64,000 nucleotides of DNA from an uncultured Methanosarcinaceae archaeon (lineage in GTDB: Archaea; Halobacteriota; Methanosarcinia; Methanosarcinales; Methanosarcinaceae), in assembly GCA_963721455.1 (NCBI GenBank), contig CAVRJG010000056.1:1-64000 (forward strand). Direction: 5' to 3'. Made by a program: the position numbers and the translations under genes. Below the pieces are notes generated by a model. The model was not told the origin of the DNA, did no database searches, and saw only the letters and a list, made by a program, of their open reading frames with translations. Below are positions 1 to 19,860 of the stretch, in pieces (positions within the stretch are counted from its first letter, which is position 1; every line of letters starts with the position of its first letter).

Positions 1-77
1 TGCATCAAGTTCAAAGTTTCGATATGTGTGCGGCCAAACAGTGGATTCGTCTCCCCACATCCAATTGATGTGGATAT

Positions 78-3071
78 TTAGAACTCCTTTTGGCCCATCA
101 GCAAGTCGCGCAATTCTATAGCAACCGGCTGCTGTGGTAGAATTTGGTAGAGGCTCAGGAGAGAGCTCTAGCGCAGTGACGAAGTAGGTCTCAGGCTCGC
201 GGAAATCGGAGAATACTTGATCGCTCAGGCATGGTGGGAATGACTTGGTCGCCGTACCCTCCAGTAACACAGGAATGATCGTGTTTTTCTTTTTCTCTGG
301 CACCTCTCATTCGTGTGTTGATTTGTGCACATTCTGCAGCTACCACGGTTCCACTTTTCGGGTCTTCATTATCGTACTTCTTGCGGTAGGCTGCAGTTCC
401 CACTACAATAATGCGATCCACTTTCTCCAGCCTGTCAATAAAACGGCCAATACTGCTTCCAGGAGGGTTGTGCCACTTATCCAACATAACCCTGATGCCA
501 GCCTTCTGCAAATCTGTTGCCAGGCTACGTTCCACCCACAGCTCTTGCTTTGAATTGCCCCACGAATAACTGATGAAACATTCTGGCAAGATAATCTCTT
601 GATCTGTCACATATGATTTCAGGCGAAAGAGCACTTTTTCAAAGCGAGAACGCTGATCTGCTGCTCGACGGTTTGCTCTCACTTCCTCAACCTGTTTCTT
701 GGTAAGATAAATAGGCTGGTTAGCTTTTGGTAGTATGATCTTCTCACCACATCGATTGCAGAAAGCAAGTTCTTCACCACTGGACATAAGCTCGCGGATC
801 ACCGCTCGGTTGAGAGTGTGCTCCTTAGAGCATAAGACTGGTTCATAACGCTGTACCGTAAGATTACGACGGGCCAGAAAGCTCTCAAACAATCCCTGAA
901 ACAGCATCTTCACTGAAGTGGGAGTGTTCGTTCCGGAATACAATACAAAGTCCAGTTCCCCAGCACGCTCTTCTTCTAGGCGGAAGCCGCACACATGACC
1001 TGTTCCGACCTCATAGCGGGCATGGTTCTGCCACTGGTTTTTGCGAGTGAAGTTCTGCGTATAACCCATAAGAACTACCAGTGACGCGTATACGTTTTCT
1101 ATGGCACCGCTCACCGTGTAGGCTACACCATCTTCAGTGAGCATTTCATCTCTTATTAACGGTTTTTTCAAGTTGATGAGTTCAGGAAATACTAGGTAGG
1201 CACGATTATTCAGTGGATCAGTTTCGCGAAAGCAGATATTGTGTTCAAGGAATAAGACTGCGCCTGAATCCAGTAGGATGCCCTGCTCGGCCTCAGTGAG
1301 CTTCTTCAGCTCGGGAAACTTATATTCACCCAATAACAGTCGTTGCTCCTCAATTGAACCGAGTCCTTCCGGATTACTACGGGCCTTTAGCACAAAGGAG
1401 GCCGCTAGATTGTTAAGCAGCTCTGGTGCGAGCAAAATACGCGTCTCTCCCTGCGAGGTCTTCAGCCGCGTTACATATCCGTGATTCTCAAGATGTCCTA
1501 CTGCAGTTAGCATCTCGGCATCGCTGAATTTCCACTTACGATCCTTCTTTTCCAAACGTTGACGAAGTTCCTTCGGCGTCAGAATCATTTTCCTGACGGC
1601 GACTTTTTTCTTTCAAGTCAAGGACGAAATTCTTGATTCGCTTGAATGTCTCAGTGGTAACAGTTGCCGTTTTATCATCCCAAGGAATCATGTTCTGCAT
1701 ATTCTGGACTAATTCTTCAATTCCTTCTCCAGACTTTGCACTAGTGAGCAGATATGACCTGACTCCCCGGTTTTGCAAAAAGCATCCAACTCTTCCTTTG
1801 TTAGCCTTGGCGTGCCACGGTCTGAACGTGCAGCAACCAAAACTGTAGGTGTTCCGCTGGAAGGTTGGGCCTCAACCTTTAGTTGTTTCAACCAGAATTC
1901 AACTCCATTTAGAGGATCGTCGTTACGTGGTCGGATCGAAGAGCACGAGCGCCAGATCCGCATCATCAAGGAATAGTGCGTGGATGAGCCGGTAGTCAGG
2001 TTGCCCAGCAAGATCCCACAGCACTGCTTCACATTGCGCACCGTCGTGCCGTTGCTTGCAGAGCTGGTTCAGCAGCCAGAACTGTTGCCCATGCGTGGAA
2101 GAGTGCTCCTTGAACTCCCCGTGGGCCAATCGCCAACCCAATCCAGTCTTACCCACCCCAGAATCGCCCACTAGCAAGACTTTGGCGCTAGTATAAGTTA
2201 TCGTCGGCGTGATAGACTGATTGAGGAGTAGGGTAAGATCCAGTTCCCATATGTGAATGACCCGATCGCGTTCTTCTTCTGGCGTGTTGGGGTCTGAACT
2301 GACTGTAGCAAGAAGTGGGAGGTGTAGATTGAAGGCAAGACTGGGAGGCCAAAATATTGAAGCTGGTTCAGTGATAATTCCCAAGCACATACCTGTACTA
2401 CTGTTCCAGAGACGAATCGTGTCGTCGCTAGACTTAGAAGCCAATACCTCTGCGATAGGAAGGAAAGAAACCGATTGAGTGCAACCTGTGTGCGCTTCTA
2501 GGTTGCGAAGTAACTGTCCGCTAGCCGAATCCCACTGCTTGATTGTGTTATCCAGACTGGCAGTAGCAAGGGTGTGGCCTGTCGGATCAAAAACAACACT
2601 TGTAATGCAGTCTTTATGTCCTTTTAGAGTATGTAGCAACCGACCGTCAGTTGCATCCAGAGCTTAACTGCTCCGCTATAATCACCACTGGCCAAGGTTC
2701 GACCAGCCGGGGTCAAAGATGACACTTGTGACCAGGGTTTGATGCCCTCCCAGTGTGCGTAGCAGCTTGCCACTGATGGTCTCCCACAGCTGGATCGTTT
2801 CATCATAACTTGCACTGGCTAAGATATGACCTGTCGGGTCAAAGGCGGCGCTTTCTACCGAGTCTTGATGCCCTTTCAGGGTGGGTAGGCTTACCACTGA
2901 CGACATCCCATAGCTTGATTTTATCATCCTGACCTCCGCTGGCCAGGACACATCCAGTTGGATCAAAGGTGACGCTATTGACGACGCTGTTGTGCCCTTT
3001 TAGCGTGTGCAGACACTTCCCAGTCTTAGTATCCCACAATTTGATCGTCTGATCCTCTGACGGTGAAGCTA
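78..3071 (-). pseudogene. WD40-repeat / ROC GTPase / COR / Zn-ribbon / TIR protein (ROCO-TIR), multiply frameshifted and 5'-truncated by IS630
   Basis: Consecutive minus-strand ORF fragments give WD40 repeats (LKGHNSVVNSVTFDPTG..LASGGQDDKIKLWD). ROC motifs follow: GDSGVGKT, WDLAGQPDY, ARSD, TSAK. Then a COR-like region, CxxxH..CxxC, and a TIR domain (CFISYSW..LDKW..IIVVGT..E). Joining frames continues IIPVLLEG..SDFR to TAA at 78-80. Confidence 0.85.
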
Positions 3072-4146
3072 TAGTCACCATTTTAAATAATGCGACATTT
3101 TGTGTGTAAATATATGTCTCTCCCAAAACTCATCCAGTTCTTTTTTCAATACTTTAATATTTTTGAATGATTTTATTGATGTTAACTCTTCTCTTGTCGT
3201 TTTCCAACAATATTCTGTTGGGTTCTTATCTGGAATAGCTGGAGGGAAAAATAGTATTTGCAACCAATGTTTATTATTTTGATAAAATTCCTTTACCTTT
3301 GAGGATCTATGCCATGTAGCCCTGTCCAGTAGAAGAAATATCCTTGTCCCTATATCTCTTTGAAACTTGATTAATGATTTTAAATAAGAGTCTGTATTCT
3401 GTGTACTTCCTAAATCGTACCAATAAAACTCTCCATTTTCAGTGTAGAATCCCCCAATATTGATTTTGGCTTTTGAACCACCTGTAAATTTAATAGGCTT
3501 TGAGCCTTTGATTGCCCAACATCTTGATCTATTTGAATCCACACAAAAACTGCTCTCATCGTGAGTGACGAATAAATGGTTAGGGTTTAGTAATCTTTTT
3601 TTGAACTTCGGCTATAAATTCGTTTGTGAATGCCTCATTCCGTTTTTTTGATCTAGGTCTACATGTAATTTTACTTAACCCTAAATTTTTAATAATTTGT
3701 CTCATTCTTGATTTGGAATAAGATATTCCGAATTTCTCTCTGACATATTGAACTGCATCCTTTGTTTGCCAACCGCGATAATAGCCGTCATCTGTTGGTA
3801 TTGGCTCTGAAAATGCTTTGCTTAACTCAGATACTTGTTCTGCTGTTAAAAAAGACTTTACTCCTCGACCAGGTTTACATTTAAGACTAGACAAACCTTC
3901 TTTTTCAGCTCGTTTTACCCATCGGTGAACCGTTGAACGGTGGACTGAAAATTCTTCTGCAATTTTAGCCGGACTCAAACCATTTTTAACCAATAATAGG
4001 GCTTGAAGTCTAATCTGCTCATTTTTGTTGCAGGAACGACATATAGCCGTGGCAATATCAGAAGTAGTAAACATTTCCAAACTCATAACTAAATTAATAT
4101 ACTTATTATAAATATATAAATGTTGCATTATATGGGGAGGTGACTA
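3072..4146 (-). mobile_element. IS630-family insertion sequence
   Basis: Imperfect terminal inverted repeats TAGTCACC..ATAATGC(G/A)ACA at both ends, TA on each side (3070-71, 4147-48), and a two-ORF transposase. Confidence 0.92.
3075..4128 (-). CDS. IS630 transposase, split into HTH ORF (3580-4128) and DDE ORF (3075-~3600) at an A7 run
   Basis: N-terminal HTH (SVHRSTVHRWVKR) and winged HTH. The second frame has HDES, LLDRATWH and NPTEYCW (DDE triad). Frames switch at CAAAAAAAG (3595-3603). Confidence 0.88.
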
Positions 4147-4147
4147 T

Positions 4148-5920
4148 ATATTTAGTCCCTTCATCACTTCTGCCGGACACAAACAAATCAGGGAATTTCT
4201 AGAGCAATTCAGCGATGAGATTATCGGAAGACTACAATTAAAGGGAAAAGTTAAACACAAATATGTCGACTATCAATGTGGGATATGGCTAGCGATTTTT
4301 AACAGCACACACAAATCACCAATGTCTACAGCAATACAGCTTTTTTTCTATTTTAAAGATGGAAAGATTAGTTACGGTGTTTATCGTTACCCGAATAATT
4401 ATTTAAAAGGACCAATAGAAAGAGACTCCGACACCTTTGATTTTGAATCATCAATTTCTCTTTTTGAAGAAAATAAAGGACTGATCTTGAGAGACGACCC
4501 TGACACAGAAGATATATTAACTGCGCCGCCAGCAGGTGAAAATAAACCAGAGATATTAACTATTCCAGCAGGTAATAAACTGTATAAAATATCGCATGGG
4601 GACTTTAAAGCTAAAAAGCATGCAAATATTCTTAATACGTTTAAACAAAATCACTGGGTTGGCCTTCACGAAAAGACCGGAAAATTGCAGGGTGAGCGAT
4701 TTAAAAACAACCTGCGGCTGGGTGACTACTTATATATCACTGTAGGTGCTGATGAACTTTTTGCGATAGCTAAAATCAAATCCGATTCATGGAAATATGT
4801 TCCAGAGGGTATTGTATTTGAGAGTGGTTGGATCTACCGAGAAGTAGAATACGTTAAATATGCAATAAAGACAGACCCTTATGAGTTAAAAGAGCATAAA
4901 AAGCATTTCTATCCCAGCGCAAACAGTACTTTATCTGAGATTACCCCTAAAAACCTCAAAGAAGCAAATGAGAATCTTTTCAAGCCTTATTTTGGAGTTG
5001 AGTTCGTTTTAGATGGAGGAAACACACCGAAAGTTCTGGAAAAGTCTCCCTGTAACATTATATTATATGGGCCGCCTGGTACTGGGAAGACGTACAATAC
5101 AATTGATTTAGCAGTTAAAATTATCACTGGAAAGAGTACGAGTCATGAAGAAGATAAAAAAGTGTTTGATGATTTAAGAAAAGAAGGACAGATTGAGTTT
5201 ATTACTTTTCATCAGAACTACAGCTATGAAGACTTCATGATTGGCATTAGGCCTGACCTGGGTGAAGCTTCAACCTTGAAATTCAGGCGCACAGAAGGCA
5301 TATTCCACAAGATGTGCAAAAAAGCAGAGCAGAATTTTCTGCAATCACAGAATCAAACAGAAGTTCCCTTGAAGAGATATGTGCTCATCATTGACGAAAT
5401 CAATAGAGCCAATATATCAAAAGTATTTGGTGAACTCATTACGCTGTTGGAAGAAGATAAACGTCTGGGAGCTAAAAACGAGCTTAGAGTCAGTATTCCC
5501 GGTGAAGAAACAGATTTTGGAATCCCGCCCAATGTTTATGTCATCGGAACCATGAATACTGCCGACAAATCGATAGCAATGATTGATATCGCATTGAGAA
5601 GGCGCTTTGAATTTAGTGGTTACTTCCCTGATTATAGCAAGGTAGACGAACTCAGCGGAGATATTCTGAAGCATATAAATAAACAAATCTACGAGCGTAA
5701 AAAGTCTGCTGATTACTTAATTGGTCACGGGTATTTCATGAACGGTGGCGAACCTCCGGAAACTTTGGAAGTGCTTCAAAACAAAGTTATACCCTTGTTA
5801 ATGGAGTATTTTTCTGGCAAGACCGATGTTGTCGAAGAAATCTTCAAAGGAAGTGAATGGTCAGTAAAATACGATACTGAGAAATATGGCTGGGAAATCG
5901 AACAGCAAATAACACAGTAA
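4148..5920 (+). CDS. mcrB: McrB-family AAA+ GTPase, 5'-truncated (first ATG at 4322)
   Basis: GPPGTGKT, FITFHQNYSYEDF, LIIDEINRAN, GTMNTADKS, ALRRRF. The frame is open from the IS630 end at 4148. Confidence 0.9.
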   Translation: MFSPFITSAGHKQIREFLEQFSDEIIGRLQLKGKVKHKYVDYQCGIWLAIFNSTHKSPMSTAIQLFFYFKDGKISYGVYRYPNNYLKGPIERDSDTFDFESSISLFEENKGLILRDDPDTEDILTAPPAGENKPEILTIPAGNKLYKISHGDFKAKKHANILNTFKQNHWVGLHEKTGKLQGERFKNNLRLGDYLYITVGADELFAIAKIKSDSWKYVPEGIVFESGWIYREVEYVKYAIKTDPYELKEHKKHFYPSANSTLSEITPKNLKEANENLFKPYFGVEFVLDGGNTPKVLEKSPCNIILYGPPGTGKTYNTIDLAVKIITGKSTSHEEDKKVFDDLRKEGQIEFITFHQNYSYEDFMIGIRPDLGEASTLKFRRTEGIFHKMCKKAEQNFLQSQNQTEVPLKRYVLIIDEINRANISKVFGELITLLEEDKRLGAKNELRVSIPGEETDFGIPPNVYVIGTMNTADKSIAMIDIALRRRFEFSGYFPDYSKVDELSGDILKHINKQIYERKKSADYLIGHGYFMNGGEPPETLEVLQNKVIPLLMEYFSGKTDVVEEIFKGSEWSVKYDTEKYGWEIEQQITQ

Positions 5921-5922
5921 TC

Positions 5923-7271
5923 ATGAATACCATATTCGAATATGGCGAGCAATTTACGGTTGATGACCGTAAAGGTCTTGAATCGTATTTACTCTCTTTA
6001 TGGAAAGAACATAAAGAAATTTGGCCAGCCAAGCGTGAAAATGGAAGTCCTGATCCCGATCCTGATTTAGGTTCAGATTCCGATTCAGATTCAAAATATC
6101 AGCCTTTCCTGAGTTTTGACGGGAAAATAGCCAGAGCAAGGAATTACATCGGGTTCATTCATTTTGAAAACTCTAATATGGAAATATACCCCAAGGTTTT
6201 TCAAAAACTTTTCGAAATGAACTTGAAATAAGCAAAGAGCTAATGCATCGCCATTTGTTTTACTGGTTCAGTTATTGCAAAAGAGTAAAGTTCCCATTTA
6301 ACCAGGCATTTCTTGATAAGCTTGAACTAGAATTACCGGAACTGATCATGTATTTATTCGCAAGACAGATACATGAAGTCATCAGTACTCGGCCTTTTTC
6401 TGCTTATGAAGAAGTACAGGAAGCTCTGTTTACACCCAGAGGGAGAATTAATTTTGACCGTTATGCAACCAGAATGTCTTACGGCAGTTATCACTTAATT
6501 GATTGTGACTATGAGCCATTCATATTTGATAATTCTTTGAATCGTATAATCAAATATTGTACCCGGTTACTGCTCTCTAAAACCGGGATCATTGAAACAC
6601 AAAGGACATTGAATGAAATCATATTCATGCTGGAGGATGTGGATGACCAGGTGTGTTTTACTCAACAGCTCCAGACCCTCCGAATACCTTCAATATATAG
6701 CGATTACGAAGAAGTAATCCAGATATGTCGCATGATATTGGAAAATCAGGTTTATTCTCACGCAGAGTATGAAATGAAAAACTGGAGCTTATTATTCCCG
6801 ATGGAATACATTTTTGAAGATTTTATAGCCGGCTATATTCAAAAACACTTTAGTGATATATTCAAGGTAGAAACGCAGAAATCAGATCTTTACCTGCATA
6901 CTAATCCCAACACGTTTAATCTTCAACATGATATCTTGCTCACAAACAAGAAAACTGGGGAGCAGATAATTGTTGACACTAAGTATAAACCCAGATGGAA
7001 CCTGGAAAAGAGCGATTCAAAGAAGGGAATAGCTCAATCCGATATGTATCAAATGATCAGCTATGCCTACAGGCGACGAACAGATAAAGTACTGCTTATC
7101 TATCCAAATACTTCTGATAAATTGGCAGATGATTCTATGTTCTTGATAAATAAAGGTACTAAGGATGAAACTATCAAAATCAAAGCCATAGATGTACCTT
7201 TTTGGTCACTTTACGGCCACTCATATGTCGAAGAAAATCTAAAAGTCAAGTTAAGAGATATTCTTTGGTGA
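5923..7271 (+). CDS. mcrC: McrC-family PD-(D/E)xK nuclease, one frameshift near 6200-6212
   Basis: Directly follows mcrB. Motifs RNYIGFI..IYPK, LFPMEYIFEDF, D..IIVDTKYK, DMYQMISYA, LLIYP. The two ORFs join across a T5/A5/T4 homopolymer stretch. Confidence 0.88.
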
Positions 7272-7324
7272 TTTCTGAACTGTGATTTGTAAATGTGATT
7301 ACTTCTATTGCCGATGAGAAAACT

Positions 7325-7432
7325 TAGGGTGCAATTGAGGGTGCAATTGAGGGTGTAATTGAGGGTGCAATTGAGGGTGCAATTGAGGGTGTAATTGAGG
7401 GTGCAATTGAGGGTGCAATTGAAGGAGCAAGT
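7325..7432 (+). repeat. 12-bp tandem repeat GAGGGTG(C/T)AATT x8 plus one degenerate copy
   Basis: Directly visible. C,C,T variants give a 36-bp higher-order period. One frame reads EGAI/EGVI. Confidence 0.95.
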
Positions 7433-7480
7433 GAGAGAGCAAAAATGCAAACTACAGAATCAAAGGATATCACCGGCTGG

Positions 7481-7570
7481 TTAAATGATACCTTAAATGA
7501 TACTGTAAAATTACTCCCCAAGCTACCCCCAAGCTACCGCGCAAGTTACCGCGCAAGTTACCCTGTAAGC
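7481..7570 (+). repeat. Two further ~12-bp tandem repeats: TTAAATGATAC(C/T) x2 and TACCGCGCAAGT-like x5
   Basis: Directly visible; they translate as LNDT and TPQA/TAQV. Confidence 0.85.
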
Positions 7571-7649
7571 TGGCAATAGGCGTTGAAAATCAATTTTCGT
7601 AAGGAAACAAAAACCAAAAATATTATTCTCAAACCCAAGGATTCAAACC

Positions 7650-9146
7650 ATGTCTGAAAATACCTCATCCATCGTTTCCAAAGTCTGGAGCTTCTGCAAC
7701 GTCCTGAGGGACGGGGGCGTGAGCTATGGCGATTATCTGGAACAGTTGACTTATCTCATATTCCTGAAAATGGCTGAAGAGTACAGGAAGCCGCCGTACA
7801 ATAGGGATGTTGGTATCCCGGAGGAATATACCTGGGATAGATTGAAACAGCAGCGAGGGGCGGAACTCGATATCCACTACAAGAAGCTGCTGGAAGAGCT
7901 TGGGAAAAAGCCGGGGATGCTCGGGCAGATCTTCCTCAAAGCCCAGAACAAGGTCAGTGATCCGGCCATGCTGTACAAGGTCATTGATATGATCGACAAG
8001 GAAAGCTGGGTCATGATGGGTGTGGATACAAAGGGAGAGATCTACGAAGGGCTCCTGCAGAAGAATGCCGAGGACACAAAAAGCGGAGCAGGCCAGTACT
8101 TCACCCCCAGGCCGCTCATCAGGGCAATGGTTCAGTGCCTCCAGCCCGAACCCATGAAAACGATAGGAGATCCCTGCTGTGGCACAGGCGGGTTTTTTTT
8201 AGCAGCCTATGACTTCCTTACATCACACCACCGGCTGGACCGGGAGCAGAGCCGCTTCCTGAAAAACAAAACCTTTGGCGGGAACGAAATCGTTGCAGGA
8301 ACCAGACGGCTTGCCCTGATGAACATGTTCCTGCACAACATCGGGGAAATAGACGGAGAGCCCATGATATCAAATTCCGATGCTCTCATAGCCGATCCGG
8401 GTTACCGTTACGATTACATCCTCACCAACCCGCCTTTCGGAAAAAAGAGCAGCATGACCTTCACCAACGAAGAAGGCGAGCAGGAAAAAGAAGATCTCAC
8501 TTACAACCGTCAGGACTTCTGGACAACCACAAGCAACAAGCAACTAAACTTTGTGCAGCACATCCATACAATCCTCAAAACCGGCGGGCAGGCAGCAGCA
8601 GTATTGCCTGACAATTTCCTGTTTGAAGGCGGAGCAGGAGAGACCATTCGCAAAAAACTTCTTGAAGCCACAGACCTGCAAACAATACTGCGCCTGCCGA
8701 CAGGTATCTTTTATGCAAATGGCGTAAAGGCAAACGTGCTCTTCTTTGAAGCTAAACCCGCAGCCAAAGAACCCTGGACCAGAGAAGTGTGGATCTACGA
8801 CTACCGCACCAATGTCCATCACACATTGAAAAAGAACCCGATGAAGTTTTCAGATCTTGAAGAATTCATTAAATGCTACAACCCCGATAATCGAATCAGC
8901 CGTAAAGAGGCATGGAGTGAAGAATCTCCCGAAGGCAGATTCAGGAAATTCAGCTATGATGAAATTATAGCAAGGGACAAAACGAATCTGGATGTATTCT
9001 GGCTCAAAGACAAAAGCCTTGCTGATCTGGACAACCTTCCGGACCCTGATATTCTTGCAAATGAGATAATTGAGAATATGGAAGCTTCACTGGCAAGTTT
9101 CAAGGAAATTATGGTCACAATTAATGGAGAAAATGAGGAGAATTAA
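7650..9146 (+). CDS. hsdM: Type I restriction-modification methyltransferase subunit M
   Basis: DYLEQLTYLIFLKM, GQYFTPR, DPCCGTGGF, NPPF motifs. Confidence 0.95.
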   Translation: MSENTSSIVSKVWSFCNVLRDGGVSYGDYLEQLTYLIFLKMAEEYRKPPYNRDVGIPEEYTWDRLKQQRGAELDIHYKKLLEELGKKPGMLGQIFLKAQNKVSDPAMLYKVIDMIDKESWVMMGVDTKGEIYEGLLQKNAEDTKSGAGQYFTPRPLIRAMVQCLQPEPMKTIGDPCCGTGGFFLAAYDFLTSHHRLDREQSRFLKNKTFGGNEIVAGTRRLALMNMFLHNIGEIDGEPMISNSDALIADPGYRYDYILTNPPFGKKSSMTFTNEEGEQEKEDLTYNRQDFWTTTSNKQLNFVQHIHTILKTGGQAAAVLPDNFLFEGGAGETIRKKLLEATDLQTILRLPTGIFYANGVKANVLFFEAKPAAKEPWTREVWIYDYRTNVHHTLKKNPMKFSDLEEFIKCYNPDNRISRKEAWSEESPEGRFRKFSYDEIIARDKTNLDVFWLKDKSLADLDNLPDPDILANEIIENMEASLASFKEIMVTINGENEEN

Positions 9147-9269
9147 AAAATAAATTCCACATATGTCTACAGATTAAAGAATATTCTTGATATTCTTTTT
9201 ATCATCGCCAAATCCAAAAATTCAGATGTTTTTCAATAAAAGTTTTTCAATAAAATATTGTGGTGGATA

Positions 9270-9541
9270 TCCACCACTCACCTTACTGTGACATATGCCG
9301 CCTTGGTTCTGGTTGTCGCTCCTGCTTCGTTCATGAATGTCAGGTTAATGGTGTTTTTCTGGCATCCTGAATGTGTGCACTGCAGTTACTGCGTGGTGTG
9401 AATTCCAATCAATGCTGGTAATGGTTCAAACAAACAGTAGTAGTCTGTTGGATTGACAGTTGTCGTACTCGTAAACTGAACTTTAAGAGGAGCTACACCA
9501 GATCTTACATTAGCATCGGAAGTTACGGTCGGTTTTTCGGG
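9270..9541 (-). pseudogene. Degenerate PKD domain, in frame after the stop of the surface-protein gene
   Basis: After TAA the frame reads PEKPTVTSDANVRSGVAPLKVQFTSTTT, followed by decayed PKD-like sequence. Confidence 0.65.
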
Positions 9542-10531
9542 TTAGTCTGCAAGGTTGCATAAATAGATATCATTGCCACCCGCGCCATCAACATAGTTCT
9601 TGTCTATTCCCCATACAACAGTGTTATCGTATACTTCTGGTGTCGTATAAACATCTTTAGGATATTTATATATTAGTGTGCTTTGTCCTGTAGATATGTT
9701 ATACACGTATACTCCAGGTTTGCCTTCATAATCATCAACACATTTATTATATACAATTTTATCATTTTGTATGGCAATATGTGTCCCTGTACTGGCGCCG
9801 TATTCTTTTCCATTTGGATCAGTGTCAAGTTGATGTGTGACGTCTATGATTTTCTTTGTTGACGTATCATACATCGCAATATATCCCTGATGATTATATA
9901 CGTCAGACCAGATGACTTTAGTGTCCCATATATGCGGTATGTTTGGATCTCCATATGAATTGACAGTTACTTTTTCCTTCGTATTGATGTCATACATTCT
10001 GATAGTTATATCCATTTCTGGATCTTCTGAATTAGAGTAATACACCACTTTTGTGTCATATATGTCGGGATTACTACCGTTTCCGATTTTAGTCTGTGTG
10101 GATGTAGACATGTCCCTCAGATACACACTATCATTTGCACTCCAGACGATTTTGTTGTCGTAAATAGCAGGTTTGCTATATTGGTCTACATTCTGCGTGA
10201 TGTAACTTTTTGTGGCTGTTGGTATATCGTACACCGCTAGCCTTGGTGTTCCACTGCTTTCATCATGCCACACTAACTTGTTGTCGTAAATATCTGGACT
10301 GGATGCTCCAGAAGAGCTAACCGTAGTGTCTGTTCTGTCGGTAAGGTTGTATAGATGAATTACAACTCCATTTGTCCATACTACATTGTTACCATAAACA
10401 GCAGGATCATATCCTGTGCCAATTTTCGTAACTGGAACCGCTGAAGTTGCGGCTGAGATTAAAATCAAAAAAACAAAACCCAGGAATGCTGAAGCTAAAG
10501 CTATTGAACATAGCTTCCCCTTATTTTTCAT
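9542..10531 (-). CDS. Methanosarcina-type cell-surface beta-propeller (TolB-like repeat) protein
   Basis: Signal peptide plus repeated P(A/D)IYDNKIVW units. Confidence 0.85.
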   Translation of the reverse strand: MKNKGKLCSIALASAFLGFVFLILISAATSAVPVTKIGTGYDPAVYGNNVVWTNGVVIHLYNLTDRTDTTVSSSGASSPDIYDNKLVWHDESSGTPRLAVYDIPTATKSYITQNVDQYSKPAIYDNKIVWSANDSVYLRDMSTSTQTKIGNGSNPDIYDTKVVYYSNSEDPEMDITIRMYDINTKEKVTVNSYGDPNIPHIWDTKVIWSDVYNHQGYIAMYDTSTKKIIDVTHQLDTDPNGKEYGASTGTHIAIQNDKIVYNKCVDDYEGKPGVYVYNISTGQSTLIYKYPKDVYTTPEVYDNTVVWGIDKNYVDGAGGNDIYLCNLAD

Positions 10532-10616
10532 TTATTTTCCCCCAAGTATCTTTATTTTTCAAAGTTAACGTACAGTTTATAGTTCGGATATTTTTCAGAT
10601 TCTGTAATAATATCTA

Positions 10617-10712
10617 AATCATCTGTTACTAAAGTCACATTAATCTTTGTGTTCTTTTAGTAATGTTAAAAATTCTTTTTTGTAATCATCTGTTACTAAA
10701 GTCACATTAATC
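10617..10712. promoter_or_regulatory. Duplicated 29-bp element with a TGTTAC-N4-GTCACA dyad (candidate operator)
   Basis: AATCATCTGTTACTAAAGTCACATTAATC at 10617-10645 and 10684-10712, upstream of the surface-protein gene. Confidence 0.55.
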
Positions 10713-10871
10713 CAAACTTGGACTATTTGCCCAACCAATGATGTGACAAATCAGTAAATAGATTAAGTAGATATTATATAATTTTACGAATAAAAGATTA
10801 TCTAACCTTTATTACATCAATTTTTGTTATGAACTAAAATTACAGATTTCAATTCGATGTCAAAAATTGCT

Positions 10872-11276
10872 TTAAGACGAGAGGCTAATGGAAAAACTAT
10901 CACTCAAACCGTTAAGGATCTTCTTAATGCATATAATCCTGATATCATCGATCTCAAAGCTTCCGAGATCAAACAACGCCAGCCGGAAATTTAGGAAGCC
11001 GATGCAAGGAAAAAAGCACAGAAGAATCTGATTGATATTGACAGGTCTACTTTTTCCGGCGAGCTGAACGAATATATTGAGAATGTCCGAATAGTCCATG
11101 AGCAGATAATTGATACCTTGAACCTTGACACCCTTCAAAGAGCCGAATGGGATAAAGACGCTGTAGTAAGGGCAGATGAGCTGATCAACGACTTTAAGGC
11201 ATATCTGAGAGCTAACAAGACAGATCATAGCCTGAGAATTTTCTACAACCAGCCCTACCAGCGCAGGGAAGTTACC
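10872..11276 (+). pseudogene. hsdR: Type I R-M HsdR C-terminal remnant
   Basis: Frame reads ..DLLNAYNPD..*..LNEYIENVRIVHEQIIDTLNLD..AEWDK..INDFKAYL..LRIFYNQPYQRREVT, resembling HsdR C-termini. It has an internal TAG at 10992 and no start codon. Confidence 0.7.
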
Positions 11277-12013
11277 GTTACGATTACATCCTCACCAACC
11301 CGCCTTTCGGAAAAAAGAGCAGCATGACCTTCACCAACGAAGAAGGCGAGCAGGAAAAAGAAGATCTCACTTACAACCGTCAGGACTTCTGGACCACCAC
11401 AAGCAACAAGCAGCTAAACTTTGTGCAGCACATCCATACAATCCTCAAAACCGGCGGGCAGGCAGCAGTAGTATTGCCTGACAATGTCCTGTTTGAAGGC
11501 GGAGCAGGAGAGACCATCCGCAAAAAGCTTCTTGAAACCACAGACCTGCACACAATACTGCGCCTGCCGACAGGTATCTTTTACGCAAATGGCGTAAAGG
11601 CAAACGTGCTCTTCTTTGAAGCTAAACCCGCAGCCAAAGAACCCTGGACCAGAGAAGTGTGGATCTACGACTACCGCACCAATGTCCATCACACATTGAA
11701 AAAGAACCCGATGAAGTTTTCAGATCTTGAAGAATTCATTAAATGCTACAACCCCGATAATCGAATCAGCCGTAAAGAGGCATGGAGTGAAGAATTTCCC
11801 GAAGGCGGGTTCCGGAAATTCAGCTATGATGAAATAGTGGCAAGGGACAAAACGAATCTGGATATTTTCTGGCTCAAAGACAAAAGTCTTGCTGACCTCG
11901 ACAACCTTCCGGACCCTGATATTCTCGCAAACGAGATAATTGAGAATATGGAAGCTTCACTGGCAAGTTTCAAGGAAATTATGGTCACAATTAATGGTGA
12001 AAGCGAACAGTGA
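11271..12013 (+). pseudogene. hsdM: Partial second hsdM copy (3' half)
   Basis: 11271-11997 is nearly identical to 8401-9127. Confidence 0.93.
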
Positions 12014-12108
12014 TTAAAAGTAAATTTCACATAATGCTAAAAATTTAAGAATTTAGCCAATTATGGGAAACATATTCAAGAGAAATATCCAACCTCAGAA
12101 ATGTCTGT

Positions 12109-12236
12109 AGCTGATCCCAAAACTCAAAATTGTGTATCTGAATTTCAAATTTTGAATAACCAACACAGTTTCCGATTATGAAAAGGGTTCTGAAATTCTT
12201 ATTGACGTGAAAATAAAGTTGGTTTTGGGATGAGCT
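12109..12236. mobile_element. MITE-like element, ~128 bp
   Basis: 15-bp inverted ends AGCTGATCCCAAAAC / GTTTTGGGATGAGCT (1 mismatch), with no coding capacity. Confidence 0.7.
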
Positions 12237-12347
12237 TATTAAAAAAGTCGTAAAAGAAGTTATGGAAATTAGAAGCAGATAATAAATAAAACGAAATTAA
12301 GAAAATCCTCGGGAAGGAATGAAGAAGCAGAAATAAAGCATTGCAGT

Positions 12348-13004
12348 TCAAACAATCTCTGCTACCTTTTTTGCAGATGCTTTAAACGCTTCTTTTGCCC
12401 CTGATTCGGTAAGCCCGGCTCCCATTGCAATTTTCAGCGCTGTTTCATCGGTGATCAGGTTTTCAGGGGCATGCGTGTCGGTGTTCACCACAAGAGTTGC
12501 CCCTATTTCGAGGGCAAGCCTGGCAACATGGCCGTTTGTCCTGTTGTGTCCGTTCCTGGCAGTAATCTCAAGAAAAACATTCTTCTCTGCCGCAGTCCGG
12601 ACGTCTTCTTCGGAGACCAGGCCGGGGTGAGCAAGGATATCCACATATTCGCAGGCGACCGACGCTGCATTTGTCCCGGGTGCGACCGGTTCGTATATGG
12701 TTTCCCCGTGCACGACAACTATTTCCGCGCCCAGATCTTTTGCTTTCTTTGCAAGGGGAGCGATCTTTCTTGGGGGTACATGCGTCAGTTCAACGCCAGG
12801 CAAAACGCGGATATCCCATTCGTTTTCCAGGTACTTAGCCTTCTTTGCAGCTTCCAGGACATGTTCGAGATTGGTGTAATCAGCATGATCGGTAATTGCA
12901 ATAGCCGTATAGCCGTGAACAACTGCCCGCCGGACAAGTTCGCTGGGGAGCAGCTCCCCGTCACTGAAAATTGTGTGAGTGTGAAGATCAATCAACCGGA
13001 TCAC
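12348..13004 (-). CDS. PHP-domain (histidinol-phosphatase-like) protein
   Basis: DLHTHTIFSDG, ITDH, AHPG and NTDTH motifs. Confidence 0.9.
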   Translation of the reverse strand: MIRLIDLHTHTIFSDGELLPSELVRRAVVHGYTAIAITDHADYTNLEHVLEAAKKAKYLENEWDIRVLPGVELTHVPPRKIAPLAKKAKDLGAEIVVVHGETIYEPVAPGTNAASVACEYVDILAHPGLVSEEDVRTAAEKNVFLEITARNGHNRTNGHVARLALEIGATLVVNTDTHAPENLITDETALKIAMGAGLTESGAKEAFKASAKKVAEIV

Positions 13005-13113
13005 CGTGTTTGAAACTCGTTTTATTCTTTACTGCTTATTTTTTCATCACTAAATTATATTTTTCATCGCTAGATTATATAGTTCACTTTATTAACTGAA
13101 CTCTCTAATAAAA

Positions 13114-13905
13114 TTATTCAGACGTCTCGGATTTCCCAAGCCTTTCTGCAACATCTGCAAAAGCGAAGTTCGGCTTGACATCTGTTATGCCGATCCTGAC
13201 CTTTTCTCCTACCTCGACTTCCTTTACGAAGACAACGAACCCCTCAATCAGTACGGCTCCGTCCCCGCTTGACCCCAGCTTCTCAATATCCACAACGAAT
13301 TCGTCTCCTTTGCGGAGCGGGGCTGTAAGGTATTTCTTTCCGATAACATAGATTTCCGCGCTCTGGGACCGCGACGCTTTCGGAGAATAAGCACCTGTTT
13401 TGACAAAGTTCTCCCTGACCTTTTGCAGGTAGTCGTTATACATGTCTCCCTGGAAGACTTTCACAACGAAATTCCCATTAGGCTTCAGGATCTTTTTCGC
13501 ACATTCCAGTGCCGAGGTCGCAAGCTCGATTGACCGCGCATGGTCATAAGACCAGTTTCCTGACAGGTTGGGGGCTGCATCACAGAGCACCACATCAGCT
13601 CCTTTTGCCCCTACGATCTGGATAATCTTATTTATTGTCGAATCTGCGTTTATGTTGCCCTGAATGGTCTCGACTCCCTGGATAGGCTCGATTCTCTGTA
13701 AATCCACGCCAAGGACTTTTCCCCCCGACAGTTCCTTTGCAACCTGCAACCATCCGCCAGGAGCCGCGCCTAAATCCACAACCGAGTCTCCACGATTGAT
13801 AACTCTATGTTTTTCATTGATCTGTTTGAGCTTGAAGGAAGCCCTGGAACGGTACCCGTCCACTTTTGCCTGATGATAATAATAGTCTCTTCTGTCTCTT
13901 GCCAT
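13114..13905 (-). CDS. rlmE: 23S rRNA Um2552 2'-O-methyltransferase with C-terminal TRAM domain
   Basis: YRSRASFKL, DLGAAPGGW, CDAAP and KVFQG motifs, plus a TRAM tail. Confidence 0.95.
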   Translation of the reverse strand: MARDRRDYYYHQAKVDGYRSRASFKLKQINEKHRVINRGDSVVDLGAAPGGWLQVAKELSGGKVLGVDLQRIEPIQGVETIQGNINADSTINKIIQIVGAKGADVVLCDAAPNLSGNWSYDHARSIELATSALECAKKILKPNGNFVVKVFQGDMYNDYLQKVRENFVKTGAYSPKASRSQSAEIYVIGKKYLTAPLRKGDEFVVDIEKLGSSGDGAVLIEGFVVFVKEVEVGEKVRIGITDVKPNFAFADVAERLGKSETSE

Positions 13906-14118
13906 TGCTTACCTTTCCTGCACTGAAAGCTGATATATATTACGCAAACGTTTTTTGCCAAATATCAGGGATTATAGTTTTAGATGAGAATATATAATTA
14001 TTTATTAAATATATAATCTCGGTTATTTTTGAGTAGGGAGAAAGCACGGCTCTCATCAGCCTGACATTCAGCGGTATGACTCCAAGCTTTCCGAACTCTT
14101 GACTTTTTCGAGTATTCC

Positions 14119-15162
14119 TCAAAGCAGATATCTTCTGGAGCTTAAGACCGTTCTGAGGATCTCTTCACCGCCTGCTTTTTCGACCTTGATATCAGAAGGC
14201 TTTTCAATTATCTCAAGGTTGAGAGGCAGACGCCTCTGTATTTCCCTTATGAGTTGAAGATCTCCGCTCATAATAACACAGTCTATAAGGGAGTTTTCTT
14301 CGAGGACTTTATCCAGGGCTTCAAAGACTTTGTTCATATGATGGGCGATATCCTCTTCCCTGAGGCGTTCGAAGCGGCGCTGGCTAAAACCTCCCTTGCT
14401 GTGTTTTTCCTTGACGCTGCTGTGGACAAGCTCTTCGGTATCGAAGACTCTGGCATCCGGAGCAAAACCTATGAAAGACTCGCCCGCATGCAGGACAAGG
14501 ACGAGCATGCGGTAGTCCCTATTCAAAATCTCTTCGAGGAAAGAAGTCTCAAAACTGTCCCGAAGCTGCCAGGATGGGGAAGTAACCGGGACAGGAGGGA
14601 CTATGGCTTCACAGACCATGCGATGAAAGTCATAGAAAAGTACCATGCCAGTTTCCGGATCAAGCCTGTCAAGGAGATTGAGGGTCTCTTCTTCTACCAG
14701 ATCAAGGACTTTTTCACTCAGCACGCCTGAGAGGCGAGTTCCAGGAGGCAGGTAAGCAGTCAAAAGGTCGTCTGCAGGAGTCCTGAAGGAACTGAGCTTG
14801 GAAAGGTAAGCCTGAACAGCCTGCGGGCTCAGGGTTTCAACTCCGCGAAATTCCAGTTTGCTCTGGGACTCAGCCCTGATTGTTTCGAGCTCGTGGGAGA
14901 GGGTTTGGGTTCGAACATATTCCTGATTTAAAAGGGCCTCAGCTTCCTGCCTGTCCGCAACGGCCTGCCTCGCAAGAGCCTCTTTCTTTTCAAGCTGGTT
15001 TTTTGCAGTCCGCAGGTCGAGTTCCAGTTTAATTATCAGGGAGTTGAGCCGGTCGATCTCAAGCTCGAGCTGTCCCTTTCCTGAGATTTTTCCTATGAAT
15101 GTGCTCAAGCCCTTTTTCGCGTCTTTAGCGGTTTCTTCTATTACATTCTTTTTATAGGTCAT
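14119..15162 (-). CDS. Vms1/Ankzf1-like release factor (aVLRF1) with N-terminal coiled coil
   Basis: KEKHSKGGFSQRRFERLR motif. Confidence 0.88.
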   Translation of the reverse strand: MTYKKNVIEETAKDAKKGLSTFIGKISGKGQLELEIDRLNSLIIKLELDLRTAKNQLEKKEALARQAVADRQEAEALLNQEYVRTQTLSHELETIRAESQSKLEFRGVETLSPQAVQAYLSKLSSFRTPADDLLTAYLPPGTRLSGVLSEKVLDLVEEETLNLLDRLDPETGMVLFYDFHRMVCEAIVPPVPVTSPSWQLRDSFETSFLEEILNRDYRMLVLVLHAGESFIGFAPDARVFDTEELVHSSVKEKHSKGGFSQRRFERLREEDIAHHMNKVFEALDKVLEENSLIDCVIMSGDLQLIREIQRRLPLNLEIIEKPSDIKVEKAGGEEILRTVLSSRRYLL

Positions 15163-15428
15163 TTGCCTTCCGTTCCTGTTTCAGATCTGTTCCCCACCTT
15201 AATTGAAATTTGTCACCTTAAACGAAATTTATCATATCCTTAATTGAAATTTAGCCCATATATGTACACTTCCTAATAAAAGATCCTCTTTTTGTCAATT
15301 TTAATCTCTCGCATTTCGAAAGTTTTAAGAATATCGTATTTAATGTCAATTTGCTTTCAGGAATTTTTCCTGAAAAGCAAGCCAATTTTCACACTTACTT
15401 AATTATTATAGATTACTCCGGTGCCTGA

Positions 15429-16784
15429 ATGAAAACCCCATTGAAAGACTTTCAAAATCAGACGGGCCAGAAGTGCCCGAACCAGGAAAATCCCGGCCAG
15501 AAGGAACCGGATAGAGTAAATAATATGGATAAAGAAGACAGGCAAAATGCCGCCAGATCCATAGCTGAAAAATTTCATCCAACGCTCTGGATCCAGGGAC
15601 AGAGGAGCTCTTCTCTTGCCGGAAAAACGATAGTTCTTGGCGTTACAGGGAGCATCGGAGCGGTCAGGGTAGTTGAACTTGCAAGAGAACTGATAAGAAA
15701 CGGGGCTGATGTCCATCCTGTGATGACAGACGCTGCCAGGCATATCCTGCACCCTGATGCCCTGCACTATGCGACCGGAAACCCTGTAATTACCGAACTT
15801 GGAGGCAGGGTTGAGCATGTGGAGTTCTGCGGGCTCAAGGGCAGAGCCGATCTTCTCCTGATAGCCCCTGCAACGGCAAACACCATAGGAAAAATCGCAT
15901 ATGGAATAGACGATACCACTGTCACATCTTTTGCAACAACTGCCCTTGGCTCAGGCGTACGTTTAATGGTTGTGCCTGCGATGCACGAGTCAATGTACAG
16001 GCACCCGGCTGTAGCTGAAAATATCGTAAAATTGAGAAGCTGGGGAATCTCTATCGTAGGTCCCAAACTGGAAGAAGGGATCGCAAAAATTGCATCAAAC
16101 GAAGAAATAGTGCTCGAAGTAGAAAGGGCTCTCGGAAGAAGGAGCCTTGAAAAACGAAAAGTAATTATCACAAGTGGTTCAACTGCCGAAAGCCTGGACC
16201 CGATCCGTATCCTCACGAACCGGGCTTCCGGGAAAACCGGAAGGGAACTTGCCCTTGAAGCTTACCGCAGTGGAGCTGATGTAACCCTGGTGCACAGGGA
16301 CCGGCTGGGGCTTGCAGGAATCAGGGAAATTTTTGCAGAAAACGCCGCCGAAATGACAGATGCCGTACTCTCGGAACTGCAGAAAGGGTATGATGTCCTG
16401 ATCAGCTCGGCAGCAATAGCCGACTATACAGCCGAACCTTCTCCCGAAAAGATCAAATCGGGAGGAGAACTTGTGTTGAGACTGAAACCGACCCGCAAAC
16501 TGATAAAAGAATGCCGTGAAAAGTACCCTGACCTTGTGATCATAGGTTTCAAGGCTGAAACCGGAGTTGGAAGAGATGAGCTTCTCAGAAGGGCAACCTC
16601 AACCCTTGAAGGGTCAAAACTGGACCTCATTGCAGCAAATGATGTCGGAAAAGGTGGAATGGGCACAGAGGAAAATGAACTTTACCTGCTCGGAAGGGAA
16701 AAAGGTGAGCTCAGGCACGTAAGCGGAAATAAACGGAAACTTGCAGCCTGCATCCTTGAAGAGGTAACCGGGCTTTTAAAATAA
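15429..16784 (+). CDS. coaBC: Bifunctional phosphopantothenoylcysteine decarboxylase/synthetase
   Basis: GVTGSIGA, APATANTIGK, PAMH, DPIR.LTNRASG, GFKAE. The true start may be slightly downstream. Confidence 0.95.
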   Translation: MKTPLKDFQNQTGQKCPNQENPGQKEPDRVNNMDKEDRQNAARSIAEKFHPTLWIQGQRSSSLAGKTIVLGVTGSIGAVRVVELARELIRNGADVHPVMTDAARHILHPDALHYATGNPVITELGGRVEHVEFCGLKGRADLLLIAPATANTIGKIAYGIDDTTVTSFATTALGSGVRLMVVPAMHESMYRHPAVAENIVKLRSWGISIVGPKLEEGIAKIASNEEIVLEVERALGRRSLEKRKVIITSGSTAESLDPIRILTNRASGKTGRELALEAYRSGADVTLVHRDRLGLAGIREIFAENAAEMTDAVLSELQKGYDVLISSAAIADYTAEPSPEKIKSGGELVLRLKPTRKLIKECREKYPDLVIIGFKAETGVGRDELLRRATSTLEGSKLDLIAANDVGKGGMGTEENELYLLGREKGELRHVSGNKRKLAACILEEVTGLLK

Positions 16785-16964
16785 CAAAAATGCCATGAAG
16801 TTACAATCCCTATCTTGAAGTTGACGCTCGATAAGAGTATTAAGCTGTGAAGCTGTGTTCAGTGCTGAATATATCTGAATATCCTGCAAAGTATTCTGCA
16901 AAGTATTCTGCAAAACAGGCATGAACTTTGAAAAAATGATTGAAATTGTAAAAAGGCGTTTTCT

Positions 16965-17867
16965 ATGTACACATATGAGAGTGAAGGAGCAGATTTTCTG
17001 GCAAAAGCCTATGCTCCGGGACACATTACAGGTTTTTTCCAGATCCACGAGCATGAAGACCCTCACCGTAAGGGTTCTACAGGCTGCGGAATTGTCCTTA
17101 ACGGGGGAGTTACCACCGAAGTAAAGGTTGGGAAATCCGTGGAGAAAACCGAGATATTCCTTAATGGAAAAAGTGTTGAAGGCAGGACTACCCGGACAGT
17201 CGCAGATATGATGACTGATGTGCCTGTAAGGATTAAGAGCTGGGCAGAAATCCCAACCGGATGCGGGTTTGGAGCTTCGGGCGCGGGGGCTCTCGGGACA
17301 GCCTATGCCCTGAACAGGGCACTTTCCCTGAACCAGACCGTAAAAAGCCTGACCGAATATGCACATGTGGCAGAGGTTGTCAACCGCAGCGGACTTGGGG
17401 ATATTGCTGCCCAGTCCAACGGCGGGGTAGTTATCAGACTGCAGCCCGGAGGGCCCGAATTCGGACTTGTGGACAGGATCCCGGCTCCCGAAGCCAGGGT
17501 TTTTTGCATCGTGCTTGGCGAGATTTCCACAGATTCTGTCCTGAGGGACGAAGCTGCAGCCGGGAGAATTAATAGCGCAGGAAAAGCAGCCATGTCCGAA
17601 CTGCTTAAAAAGCCTACTCTTGAGAATTTCATGCAGCAGGCAAAAACATTTGCAAGTAAAACCGGCCTTATGAGCAGCAGGGCAAAAGATGTTATTGAAG
17701 CTGTAAACGCGAGCGGAGGGCTGGCTTCTCAGGCAATGCTCGGGGATACGGTCTTTGCAATTGCCCCCGACTGCCAGGAATTTCCTCTCTATGAAGCCCT
17801 GCAGGAATTCGGGCAGGTGCTGGAATACGGCATAAGCACCTGTGTGCCGAAATTGATGTACGATTGA
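16965..17867 (+). CDS. Pantoate kinase (GHMP family)
   Basis: APGHITGFF, GSTGCG, PTGCGFGASGA; lies in the CoA cluster. Confidence 0.92.
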   Translation: MYTYESEGADFLAKAYAPGHITGFFQIHEHEDPHRKGSTGCGIVLNGGVTTEVKVGKSVEKTEIFLNGKSVEGRTTRTVADMMTDVPVRIKSWAEIPTGCGFGASGAGALGTAYALNRALSLNQTVKSLTEYAHVAEVVNRSGLGDIAAQSNGGVVIRLQPGGPEFGLVDRIPAPEARVFCIVLGEISTDSVLRDEAAAGRINSAGKAAMSELLKKPTLENFMQQAKTFASKTGLMSSRAKDVIEAVNASGGLASQAMLGDTVFAIAPDCQEFPLYEALQEFGQVLEYGISTCVPKLMYD

Positions 17868-18159
17868 GCCTCAGGGCGAAACTTTATTTACTTTTTTGAA
17901 TATCAGGCAGGAGATAGAAATATTGGCAGAAAATTTGCTACATAAGGAAACCCCCATAGCTTAAATAGAATAGAAATAGAAAAGCTGGGGCCAAATAGAC
18001 GACACGCAGTTCAGAGAATCATCTGAATACTCCAAAGAAATATAATCAGGCAAATATATTGAAAATCCTTTCCAGCTTTAAAGTAAATCCTTTCCAGACC
18101 TGAATAATAAAAAACGGGATGAAGAAATAAGTTAACAAGCAAAAAGGTAAGCGACAGAC

Positions 18160-18921
18160 ATGACCGAGATACCCCACGACCACCCAAGGTATGAGTCCCT
18201 GCTCGCCCGTGAAAAGGTTGTAGCCGGGGTAAAAATGGGAATTACAAGCGTACAGGGACTGATTGCCCAGGGAAGAGGCGAAAGCTTTGATTACCTTATA
18301 GGCGAGCGAAGCACAGAGTCTGCGCTGTATGCTGAAAGAGCTGCAGTTGCTGCCCTTCTTCTGGCAAAGAACCCGGTAATTTCCGTAAACGGCAATGTTG
18401 CAGCCTTAGCTCCTGAAAAAGTTGTTGCCCTCGCAGACATTACGGGAGCCAGGATTGAGGTGAATCTGTTTCACAGGACCGAGACCCGGGTTCACCTTAT
18501 AATAGAACAACTGAAAGCCAGCGGGGCTTCCGAGGTGCTCGGGAAAAACCCGGATGCGAGCCTTGAACTCTCCCATGCCAGACGGCTTGTAGAAAGCAAG
18601 GGGATCTATACCGCAGATGTGGTGCTTGTTCCCCTGGAAGACGGAGACCGGTGCGAAAAGCTTGTAGAAATGGGCAAAACGGTCATAACAATTGACCTTA
18701 ACCCTCTCTCACGGACCTCCAGGACAGCTACAATATCCATTGTGGACAACCTTACCCGGGCTCTCGAAAACATGGCAAGGTTTGCACGGGAGATGAAAAA
18801 GGAAAGGAAAGAGGAACTTGTAAAGCTCATTACTACTTATGATAACAAAAAAGTCCTCTCCGAAGCTATTTCCGAAATCCAGGAACATCTCAAGGCAATT
18901 ACCGCTGAAATGGAATACTGA
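18160..18921 (+). CDS. 4-phosphopantoate--beta-alanine ligase (phosphopantothenate synthetase)
   Basis: HPRYESLL, GRGESFDYLIGE, VPLEDGDR, IDLNPLSRT. Confidence 0.93.
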   Translation: MTEIPHDHPRYESLLAREKVVAGVKMGITSVQGLIAQGRGESFDYLIGERSTESALYAERAAVAALLLAKNPVISVNGNVAALAPEKVVALADITGARIEVNLFHRTETRVHLIIEQLKASGASEVLGKNPDASLELSHARRLVESKGIYTADVVLVPLEDGDRCEKLVEMGKTVITIDLNPLSRTSRTATISIVDNLTRALENMARFAREMKKERKEELVKLITTYDNKKVLSEAISEIQEHLKAITAEMEY

Positions 18922-18923
18922 AT

Positions 18924-19577: not shown

Positions 19578-19724
19578 GTGGTGAGCCGATTTTTGAGAAT
19601 TTCGCGCAGAAAAATTCCAGATGCAATTGGAGTTAGACTACCTCAAAATTTACAAAACTTCCCCTTTTTACAGGGTTTTAGCGCAATTCTCAGGACAACT
19701 TTTTTTACGATAACCTCTTAATTC

Positions 19725-19808
19725 CAGTACTTCTTAATCAGTACTTCTTAATCAGTACTTCTTAATCAGTACTTCTTAATCAGTACTTCTTAATCAGTAC
19801 TTCTTAAT
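19725..19808 (+). repeat. 14-bp tandem repeat CAGTACTTCTTAAT x6
   Basis: Six perfect copies, ending 52 bp upstream of the amidohydrolase start. Confidence 0.97.
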
Positions 19809-19860
19809 AATTCAGATTAATCTAACGAGTTTCAGTTCATTACCTGACGGATCTGATCAT

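Follow-up and report, generated by a model that had tools for sequence, protein, structure and literature searches.

NLR-like proteins of the Avs/AVAST and bNACHT groups carry sensor repeats, an NTPase switch and an effector in one chain. Among GTPases, Kaur et al. 2021 predicted counter-invader proteins that combine an AP-GTPase and a COR domain with sensors of LRR type and with effectors of 24 or more kinds, TIR among them (PMC8195603). The source data of their Fig. 6 also list the architecture 'BetaPropeller+AP-GTPase+PrimaseZnR+TIR' for PKL67687.1 of a Methanobacteriales archaeon, and 'BetaPropeller+AP-GTPase+TIR' for HFS11412.1, SNR48942.1 and WP_179276996.1. The wider setting is outlined by Kaur 2020 (PMC7159879) and by a paper on brown-algal ROCO proteins (PMC11378527).

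A 2019 review states that every prokaryotic Roco protein then known had the layout LRR-RocCOR, and it describes CtRoco as alternating between a monomeric and a dimeric state as GTP is turned over (PMC6337361). A further relevant domain is SEFIR, which has been tested against phages; homologues of the bacterial SEFIR defence protein are reported in Methanosarcina (Millman et al., 10.1101/2022.05.11.491447). The mutant described there affects the contact between SEFIR domains, not catalysis. A paper testing a propeller-type prokaryotic Roco, or its physiological output, was not found in the literature accessible to the search, with subscription journals mostly outside it.

The gene described here is the first on contig C56, in a stretch of 64,000 nucleotides (the window) from an uncultured Methanosarcinaceae archaeon. 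An earlier note, made from the letters alone, proposed a WD40-ROC-COR-Zn-TIR protein in a defence island and a candidate archaeal immune receptor. By its domain layout, the window copy is a member of a class already listed in 2021 as predicted immune receptors. The reading that probably holds is that it is a 5'-truncated, eight times frameshifted and likely dead copy of a WD40-Roc-COR-Zn-TIR gene, whose intact relatives are predicted to be GTPase-gated receptors directed against invaders.

Domain layout of the gene

On the minus strand, from position 3073 to 78, several short ORFs give in order WD40 repeats, Roc, approximately 280 residues without a Pfam match, the motif C-x3-H...C-x2-C and a TIR/SEFIR domain (Table 1). 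WD40, Roc and TIR_2/SEFIR are matched by Pfam in separate pieces. Frameshift-aware alignment with six intact homologues (68-76% identity) places the same eight frameshifts in all six cases, at about 2885, 2708, 2655, 1925, 1773, 1592, 296 and 160, and finds no in-frame stop. The pieces therefore belong to one original gene, as the earlier note had assumed when stitching them.

Pfam matches and motif coordinates also confirm the WD40 repeats, a Roc domain with G1-G5, the Cys/His motif and the C-terminal TIR of that reading. Zinc-finger matches at the Cys/His motif, a putative metal-binding site, stay below the Pfam threshold. The N-terminal helix is missing from the WD40 remainder, as is most of blade 1; the propeller fold is present in the structure model of P0001, an intact relative.

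The COR domain is seen in the fold rather than in the sequence. Profile searches gave no Pfam match for this region and no match to a solved Roco protein. A Foldseek search with the full-length P0001 model was filled by WD40 matches, so the core was folded separately (pLDDT 85, pTM 0.84). The top VIA match of this core model is MbRoco2 (4wnr; Z 22.2, 303 aligned, rmsd 3.9). Foldseek matches it to LRRK2 (E 1e-17, 554 columns) and to the isolated COR of C. tepidum (3dpt_B; E 6.5e-10, 317 columns), and the C. tepidum Roco structures 3dpu and 6hlu are matched as well. The predicted fold of a relative thus supports a COR domain directly after Roc, which bears out the earlier claim. A dimer prediction with two copies of Roc-COR-Zn (495 aa) scored 0.10 and carries no weight for or against a dimer.

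The TIR-like domain resembles SEFIR. Its best PADLOC model is bSEFIR (E 6e-20), and the best PDB match of the TIR profile is a B. cereus-type SEFIR (5y8f, E 5e-16), in which the conserved Glu is aligned to SEFIR GVGTE. In the full-length model this Glu is the fifth residue of a predicted helix. The earlier note saw it where the catalytic residue of an NADase is expected. It is kept in 119 of 120 relatives and may be that residue, although HMMER alignment with the NADase TIR 7uxr places it on a different Glu of that protein.

Table 1. Features of the window copy and its surroundings. Positions are those of the window, except in the last line.
Feature	Position	Strand	Basis or remark
3' flank to contig end	1..77	-	homologous to flank of G025 TIR allele; ends at right boundary common to prt-site alleles
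Stop codon of Roco gene	78-80	-	
TIR/SEFIR-like domain	78..598	-	Pfam TIR_2/SEFIR, PADLOC bSEFIR; frameshifts ~296, ~160
TIR Glu	332-334	-	conserved residue
TIR FISY	~569	-	motif
C-x3-H...C-x2-C zinc-ribbon-like motif, then long linker helix	704..844	-	residue conservation
C-x3-H...C-x2-C	830-749	-	motif
COR-like region (helical N-COR, beta-sheet C-COR)	845..1679	-	fold of relative's model; frameshift ~1592
Roc (AP-GTPase) G-domain, G1-G5 all there	1680..2198	-	Pfam Roc E 3e-16; frameshifts ~1925, ~1773
G5 SAK	1740-1734	-	Roc motif
G4 ARSD	1829-1820	-	Roc motif
G3 DLAG	2013-2004	-	Roc motif
G2 Thr	2094	-	Roc motif
G1 GDSGVGKT	2166-2145	-	Roc motif
WD40 beta-propeller remainder (predicted sensor)	2226..3073	-	Pfam; frameshifts ~2885, ~2708, ~2655
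IS630-family element, TA at both ends	3069..4149	-	Pfam HTH/DDE_3; HTH ORF 3580-4128, DDE ORF 3075-3542
mcrB-like AAA GTPase, 5'-truncated	4151..5920	+	Pfam; frame open to IS end; starts at residue ~101 of G025 orthologue
mcrC, two ORFs, split by 11-bp insertion near 6206	5923..7271	+	Pfam, alignment
Type I hsdM, intact	7650..9146	+	Pfam, PADLOC
Second partial hsdM copy	11324-12013	+	
prt-site alleles (L022, L007, L024, L171, L172)	G017:C16; G025:C198 and C201; G069:C9; G029:C1:3,294,600-3,302,200		

Probable origin and decay of the window copy

Alignment with relatives of about 1045 aa begins at residue ~49-52, a point that coincides with the TA terminus of an IS630-family element. This element stands in place of two 5' ends, that of the Roco gene and, on its far side, that of mcrB. 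Its own ends recur in the genome (nine left-end and six right-end matches).

The neighbouring McrBC and type I restriction-modification genes had suggested a defence island. The adjacency is there in the assembly. The argument drawn from it fails, because the insertion element joins two 5'-truncated genes, the search met none of the intact Methanosarcina relatives next to mcrBC, and defence genes are only weakly enriched near homologues. In the 20-32 kb examined from each of G017, G025 and G077, the hsdR-hsdS-(mcrBC)-hsdM locus is separate from the Roco locus and contains no Roco gene. It was probably the insertion element that brought the two together, and the McrBC context should not be read as evidence for the function of the Roco gene. 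No hsdR accompanies hsdM within window positions 1-20000. A short tandem repeat array occupies 7211-7521, between mcrC and hsdM, and at 11118-12013 a fragment of hsdR precedes the second partial hsdM, which suggests a rearrangement of the type I locus.

A different origin is indicated by the other end of the gene. Four of the five intact Methanosarcina Roco loci lie directly upstream of prt-dph2, two with a TIR and two with a cyclase, and where the contig extends far enough they sit behind cofD and an fmdE-like gene. In the complete genome G029, this position is occupied by 45 codons left over from the 5' end of a Roco gene (78% identical), followed by a 1658-aa NNH7/STAND repeat protein. This protein is called NACHT-like on the basis of NNH7 (E 8e-30) and a sub-threshold NACHT match (E 0.0015); it has no PADLOC match. 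No paper on 'NNH7' was found by that name, and its link to bacterial NACHT is taken from the Pfam description. Two other prt sites carry a transposase or an alpha-amylase-like gene, and the right boundary sequence is common to the alleles.

The first 60 bases of the window correspond to the sequence that flanks the G025 TIR allele on its 3' side, and contig C56 ends at the common boundary. The likely source of the window copy is therefore the variable site that precedes prt/dph2, as judged from these sequence matches. A rearrangement mediated by IS630, or a mis-join across the IS repeat, would have brought it next to mcrB. The source genome's own prt site (G000:C21, ~22,600) is empty.

As assembled, the window copy cannot make a protein. 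Eight frameshifts and the IS630 truncation leave it without a single open frame that has a start. It is quite probably a real pseudogene. Evidence for decay rather than general sequencing error is provided by several observations. Only three frameshifts occur in 87 orthologues (87 kb) of this genome compared with its closest relative, and +1 and -1 indels are balanced in 20 kb of non-coding DNA (52 versus 60). Together, these two counts rule out an insertion-type error across the whole genome. The adjacent IS630 is free of gaps relative to full copies on C2 and C73, and an nSTAND1-WD40 gene of the same genome is intact. Finally, the window copy departs from its relatives at 8 of 270 highly conserved columns, compared with 0-6 in the 12 closest relatives and a median of 4 over all 120.

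Alternatively, the organism itself may carry an intact gene. The indels would then be sequencing errors of local extent, due to thin coverage of the contig end or to a minority strain, the IS junction would be a mis-join, and the complete gene would lie upstream of prt. This is unlikely, although part of the evidence fits it. Local error would account for frameshifts that are mostly +1 and come without a nonsense codon, and for an excess of amino-acid changes that is mild and significant with only one of five outgroups. Compared with L007, seven of nine DNA gaps are insertions, but no such excess is found genome-wide and the IS630 copy shows none of it. The position at the very start of C56, whose end is the exact shared boundary of the prt site, would suit a poorly covered end, and G025 has three alleles of the prt site, so that strain mixtures do occur there. 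However, a gene for an HD-STAND-TPR protein in the middle of the contig (23-26 kb) is similarly lesioned between clean core genes, mcrC carries an 11-bp insertion, and neither the missing 5' end nor the fmdE-like gene of the prt site is found in the assembly. The best match there to the lost 5' end is another WD40 gene at 50%.

Public sequencing runs match window positions 1-4400 in small shares only. Four of the 24 matching runs were aligned and cover essentially only the insertion element; no public run was found that covers the Roco gene. Programmed frameshifting is implausible for eight sites, all of them absent from relatives.

The mid-contig gene codes for an HD-CE/STAND/TPR protein (23030-26458) and, compared with G767, is interrupted by five or more isolated +1 gaps (23455, 24560, 24905, 25495 and 25978). 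Its decay is rich in insertions and poor in stops, like that of the Roco gene, and the core genes on both sides are clean.

Spread and proposed role of the family

Of 7990 candidates scored against the COR-TIR piece, 989 match, with lengths of 815-2325 aa. The best 120 of these are 62-83% identical and are mostly single proteins of ~1050 aa. A profile of COR-Zn recovers 1241 representatives at E<=1e-10. Within its top 150 matches, 131 have Roc and COR; 108 of these 131 also have WD40, and 113 have a TIR after COR.

The proposed receptor is no archaeal speciality. Most relatives that carry a name are from bacteria, and the taxa represented include Planctomycetota, Chthoniobacter, Bradyrhizobium, Methanosaeta and Methanosarcina. 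Within Methanosarcina, 4 of 58 other genomes have a member of the family. A search at phylum level gave one close match in 400 genomes, and the phylum of G460 gave none in 300 genomes at E<=1e-40. A single-protein search of genome contigs yielded six loci. On viral contigs there were 123 pattern matches, none of them a relative, and on plasmids seven distant matches, all of which fell short of 80% query coverage. In a quick tree of 65 rows, the G017 copy stands beside a Planctomycetota protein (SH-aLRT 99), and the Methanosarcina copies are not monophyletic but mixed with bacterial rows. These placements suggest transfer between lineages.

The 120 closest relatives have an invariant P-loop Lys, G3 Asp, G4 Asp, G5 Ser-Ala, last two Cys and TIR Ser-Tyr. 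The GTPase motifs are conserved in 114-120 of them, except for a variable G5 Lys (85 of 120), and the window copy has all. C858, H862, C882 and C885 are conserved in 119, 119, 120 and 120, respectively. Mean pairwise identity is 45% in the propeller, the most variable part, compared with 75-78% in Roc-COR.

The effector is swapped across the family. Besides TIR it may be a class III cyclase (L024, L171), DUF4365 (L125) or a metallophosphoesterase (L126, L128); the proteins with these other tails are more distant members. Some members (P0015, P0020, P0124, P0143) have extra domains: a C-terminal PtuA-like ATPase, an N-terminal AAA_35 that replaces WD40, or a CHAT protease after the TIR.

The reading of the earlier note as sensor, switch and effector fits the family, with its variable propeller, conserved catalytic-type residues and swapped effectors. 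It does not extend to the broken window copy. In the proposed mechanism, the variable propeller would bind a viral or other foreign protein. Binding would shift the nucleotide-linked Roc-COR cycle between monomer and dimer that is known for Roco proteins, and the long linker helix would then bring the TIR domains together. The assembled TIRs would cleave NAD+ directly and arrest the infected cell; direct cleavage is proposed because no effector gene travels with the family. Alternatively, the SEFIR-like domain may serve as a scaffold or signalling part instead of an NADase.

The genes around homologues bear on this proposal. After 14 near-duplicate and special loci were dropped, PADLOC matches at 1e-15 were found for 16 of 251 neighbours from 67 loci, compared with 2 of 109 control genes (two-sided p=0.11), the controls coming from four carrier MAGs that are a poor taxonomic match. 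A hand-picked, post hoc set of specific defence matches gave 11 of 251 versus 0 of 109 (p=0.04). The enrichment near defence genes by which the earlier note was to be checked is thus a weak signal. Of the neighbours scanned, 103 of 251 have a Pfam family, and most of these serve everyday metabolism, transport or regulation. In 79 metagenome and 6 genome loci, no gene accompanies the family consistently, apart from neighbours common to near-identical loci.

At one locus (L055:2055-8371), two family members stand in tandem near a gene for a CapP-like peptidase. On a metagenome contig (L116:2-2851), an ORF with a Tc-toxin TcA C-terminal domain lies upstream of a family member.

The weak neighbour signal, the position of the Methanosarcina site among housekeeping genes and the existence of cyclase alleles would also suit a family of GTP-level or stress sensors for general signalling. 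The cyclase forms would make cAMP, and the TIR forms would be SEFIR-type scaffolds or signal makers, with no role against viruses. The review cited above allows for a direct dependence of Roco GTPase activity on the physiological level of GTP (PMC6337361). Such a role is nevertheless improbable. The spread is very patchy, both within the genus and in the phylum of G460, the repeat domain is hypervariable, and the effectors are swapped among conflict-type domains. At the same site a NACHT-like gene replaces the Roco gene, and decay is frequent. All these features are typical of conflict genes (PMC8195603).

With a Roco-TIR gene, a Roco-cyclase gene, and a Roco remnant followed by a NACHT-like gene as its alleles, the prt site is better support for a receptor role than the McrBC context. 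A bolder view can be put forward tentatively, with the odds somewhat against it: WD40-Roc-COR-Zn proteins would be a distinct class of one-protein immune receptors with an LRRK2-type GTPase in place of the NLR ATPase, exchanged in Methanosarcina with cyclase-armed versions and a NACHT-like NLR at one fixed slot of the chromosome upstream of prt/dph2. If true, the site offers a naturally occurring set of archaeal receptors that can replace one another, and a tractable way to learn what lies under the control of a prokaryotic Roco switch. The useful yield is the intact Methanosarcina TIR and cyclase alleles at one site, the window copy being unfit for a functional test.

The source genome has further NLR-like genes. 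On C44 (G000; L149:3322-7595), an APAF-1-like gene with NB-ARC, APAF1_C and WD40 lies in three ORFs, inserted after metG. On C42 (G000; L150:5037-10107), an intact Sir2 gene (ThsA-like, PADLOC E 6e-21) overlaps an intact gene for a 1223-aa nSTAND1-WD40 protein. A 161-aa ORF lies upstream of this pair, a candidate split NLR-like defence operon.

Comparison with described systems

Avs and bNACHT proteins have a STAND ATPase core where this family has Roc-COR, and in most of them the domain order is the opposite.

The closest profile and the closest solved structure for the TIR-like domain are those of bacterial SEFIR, and like the SEFIR defence system the family consists of a single gene. In that system the SEFIR is N-terminal in a protein of about 400 aa, and membership calls for a SEFIR score above that of TIR. 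In the window family the domain is C-terminal, behind the GTPase, and Pfam TIR_2 scores above SEFIR.

The Roc-COR-CHAT protease of Runella, part of a bacterial gasdermin system (10.1101/2021.06.07.447441), likewise joins Roc-COR to an effector tail and belongs to a tested prokaryotic cell-death operon. As described there, it differs in having a protease as effector and a gasdermin partner gene, whereas the window family has no conserved partner.

The AP-GTPase proteins of Kaur 2021 share a repeat sensor, the AP-GTPase, COR and a variable C-terminal effector that includes TIR. The family, too, combines fast-evolving N-terminal repeats with AP-GTPase, COR and a variable conflict effector. Its repeats are WD40 rather than LRR, which places it with the propeller entries of the supplementary table. 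In the main text the sensors are LRRs; the propeller forms stand only in the table, where COR is not annotated, and the match is one of architecture.

With CtRoco (3DPU/6HLU), MbRoco2 (4WNR) and LRRK1/2 the family shares the Roc-COR tandem fold and G1-G5, with ARSD as a variant of G4. It differs in sequence (13-19% identity), in having WD40 for LRR, in the added Zn ribbon and TIR, and in a COR that is invisible to Pfam. Should an intact relative turn out to be an anti-virus NADase gated by GTP, it would reveal what the Roc-COR switch does in the prokaryotic kin of LRRK2 and add a GTPase-based counterpart to the NLRs.
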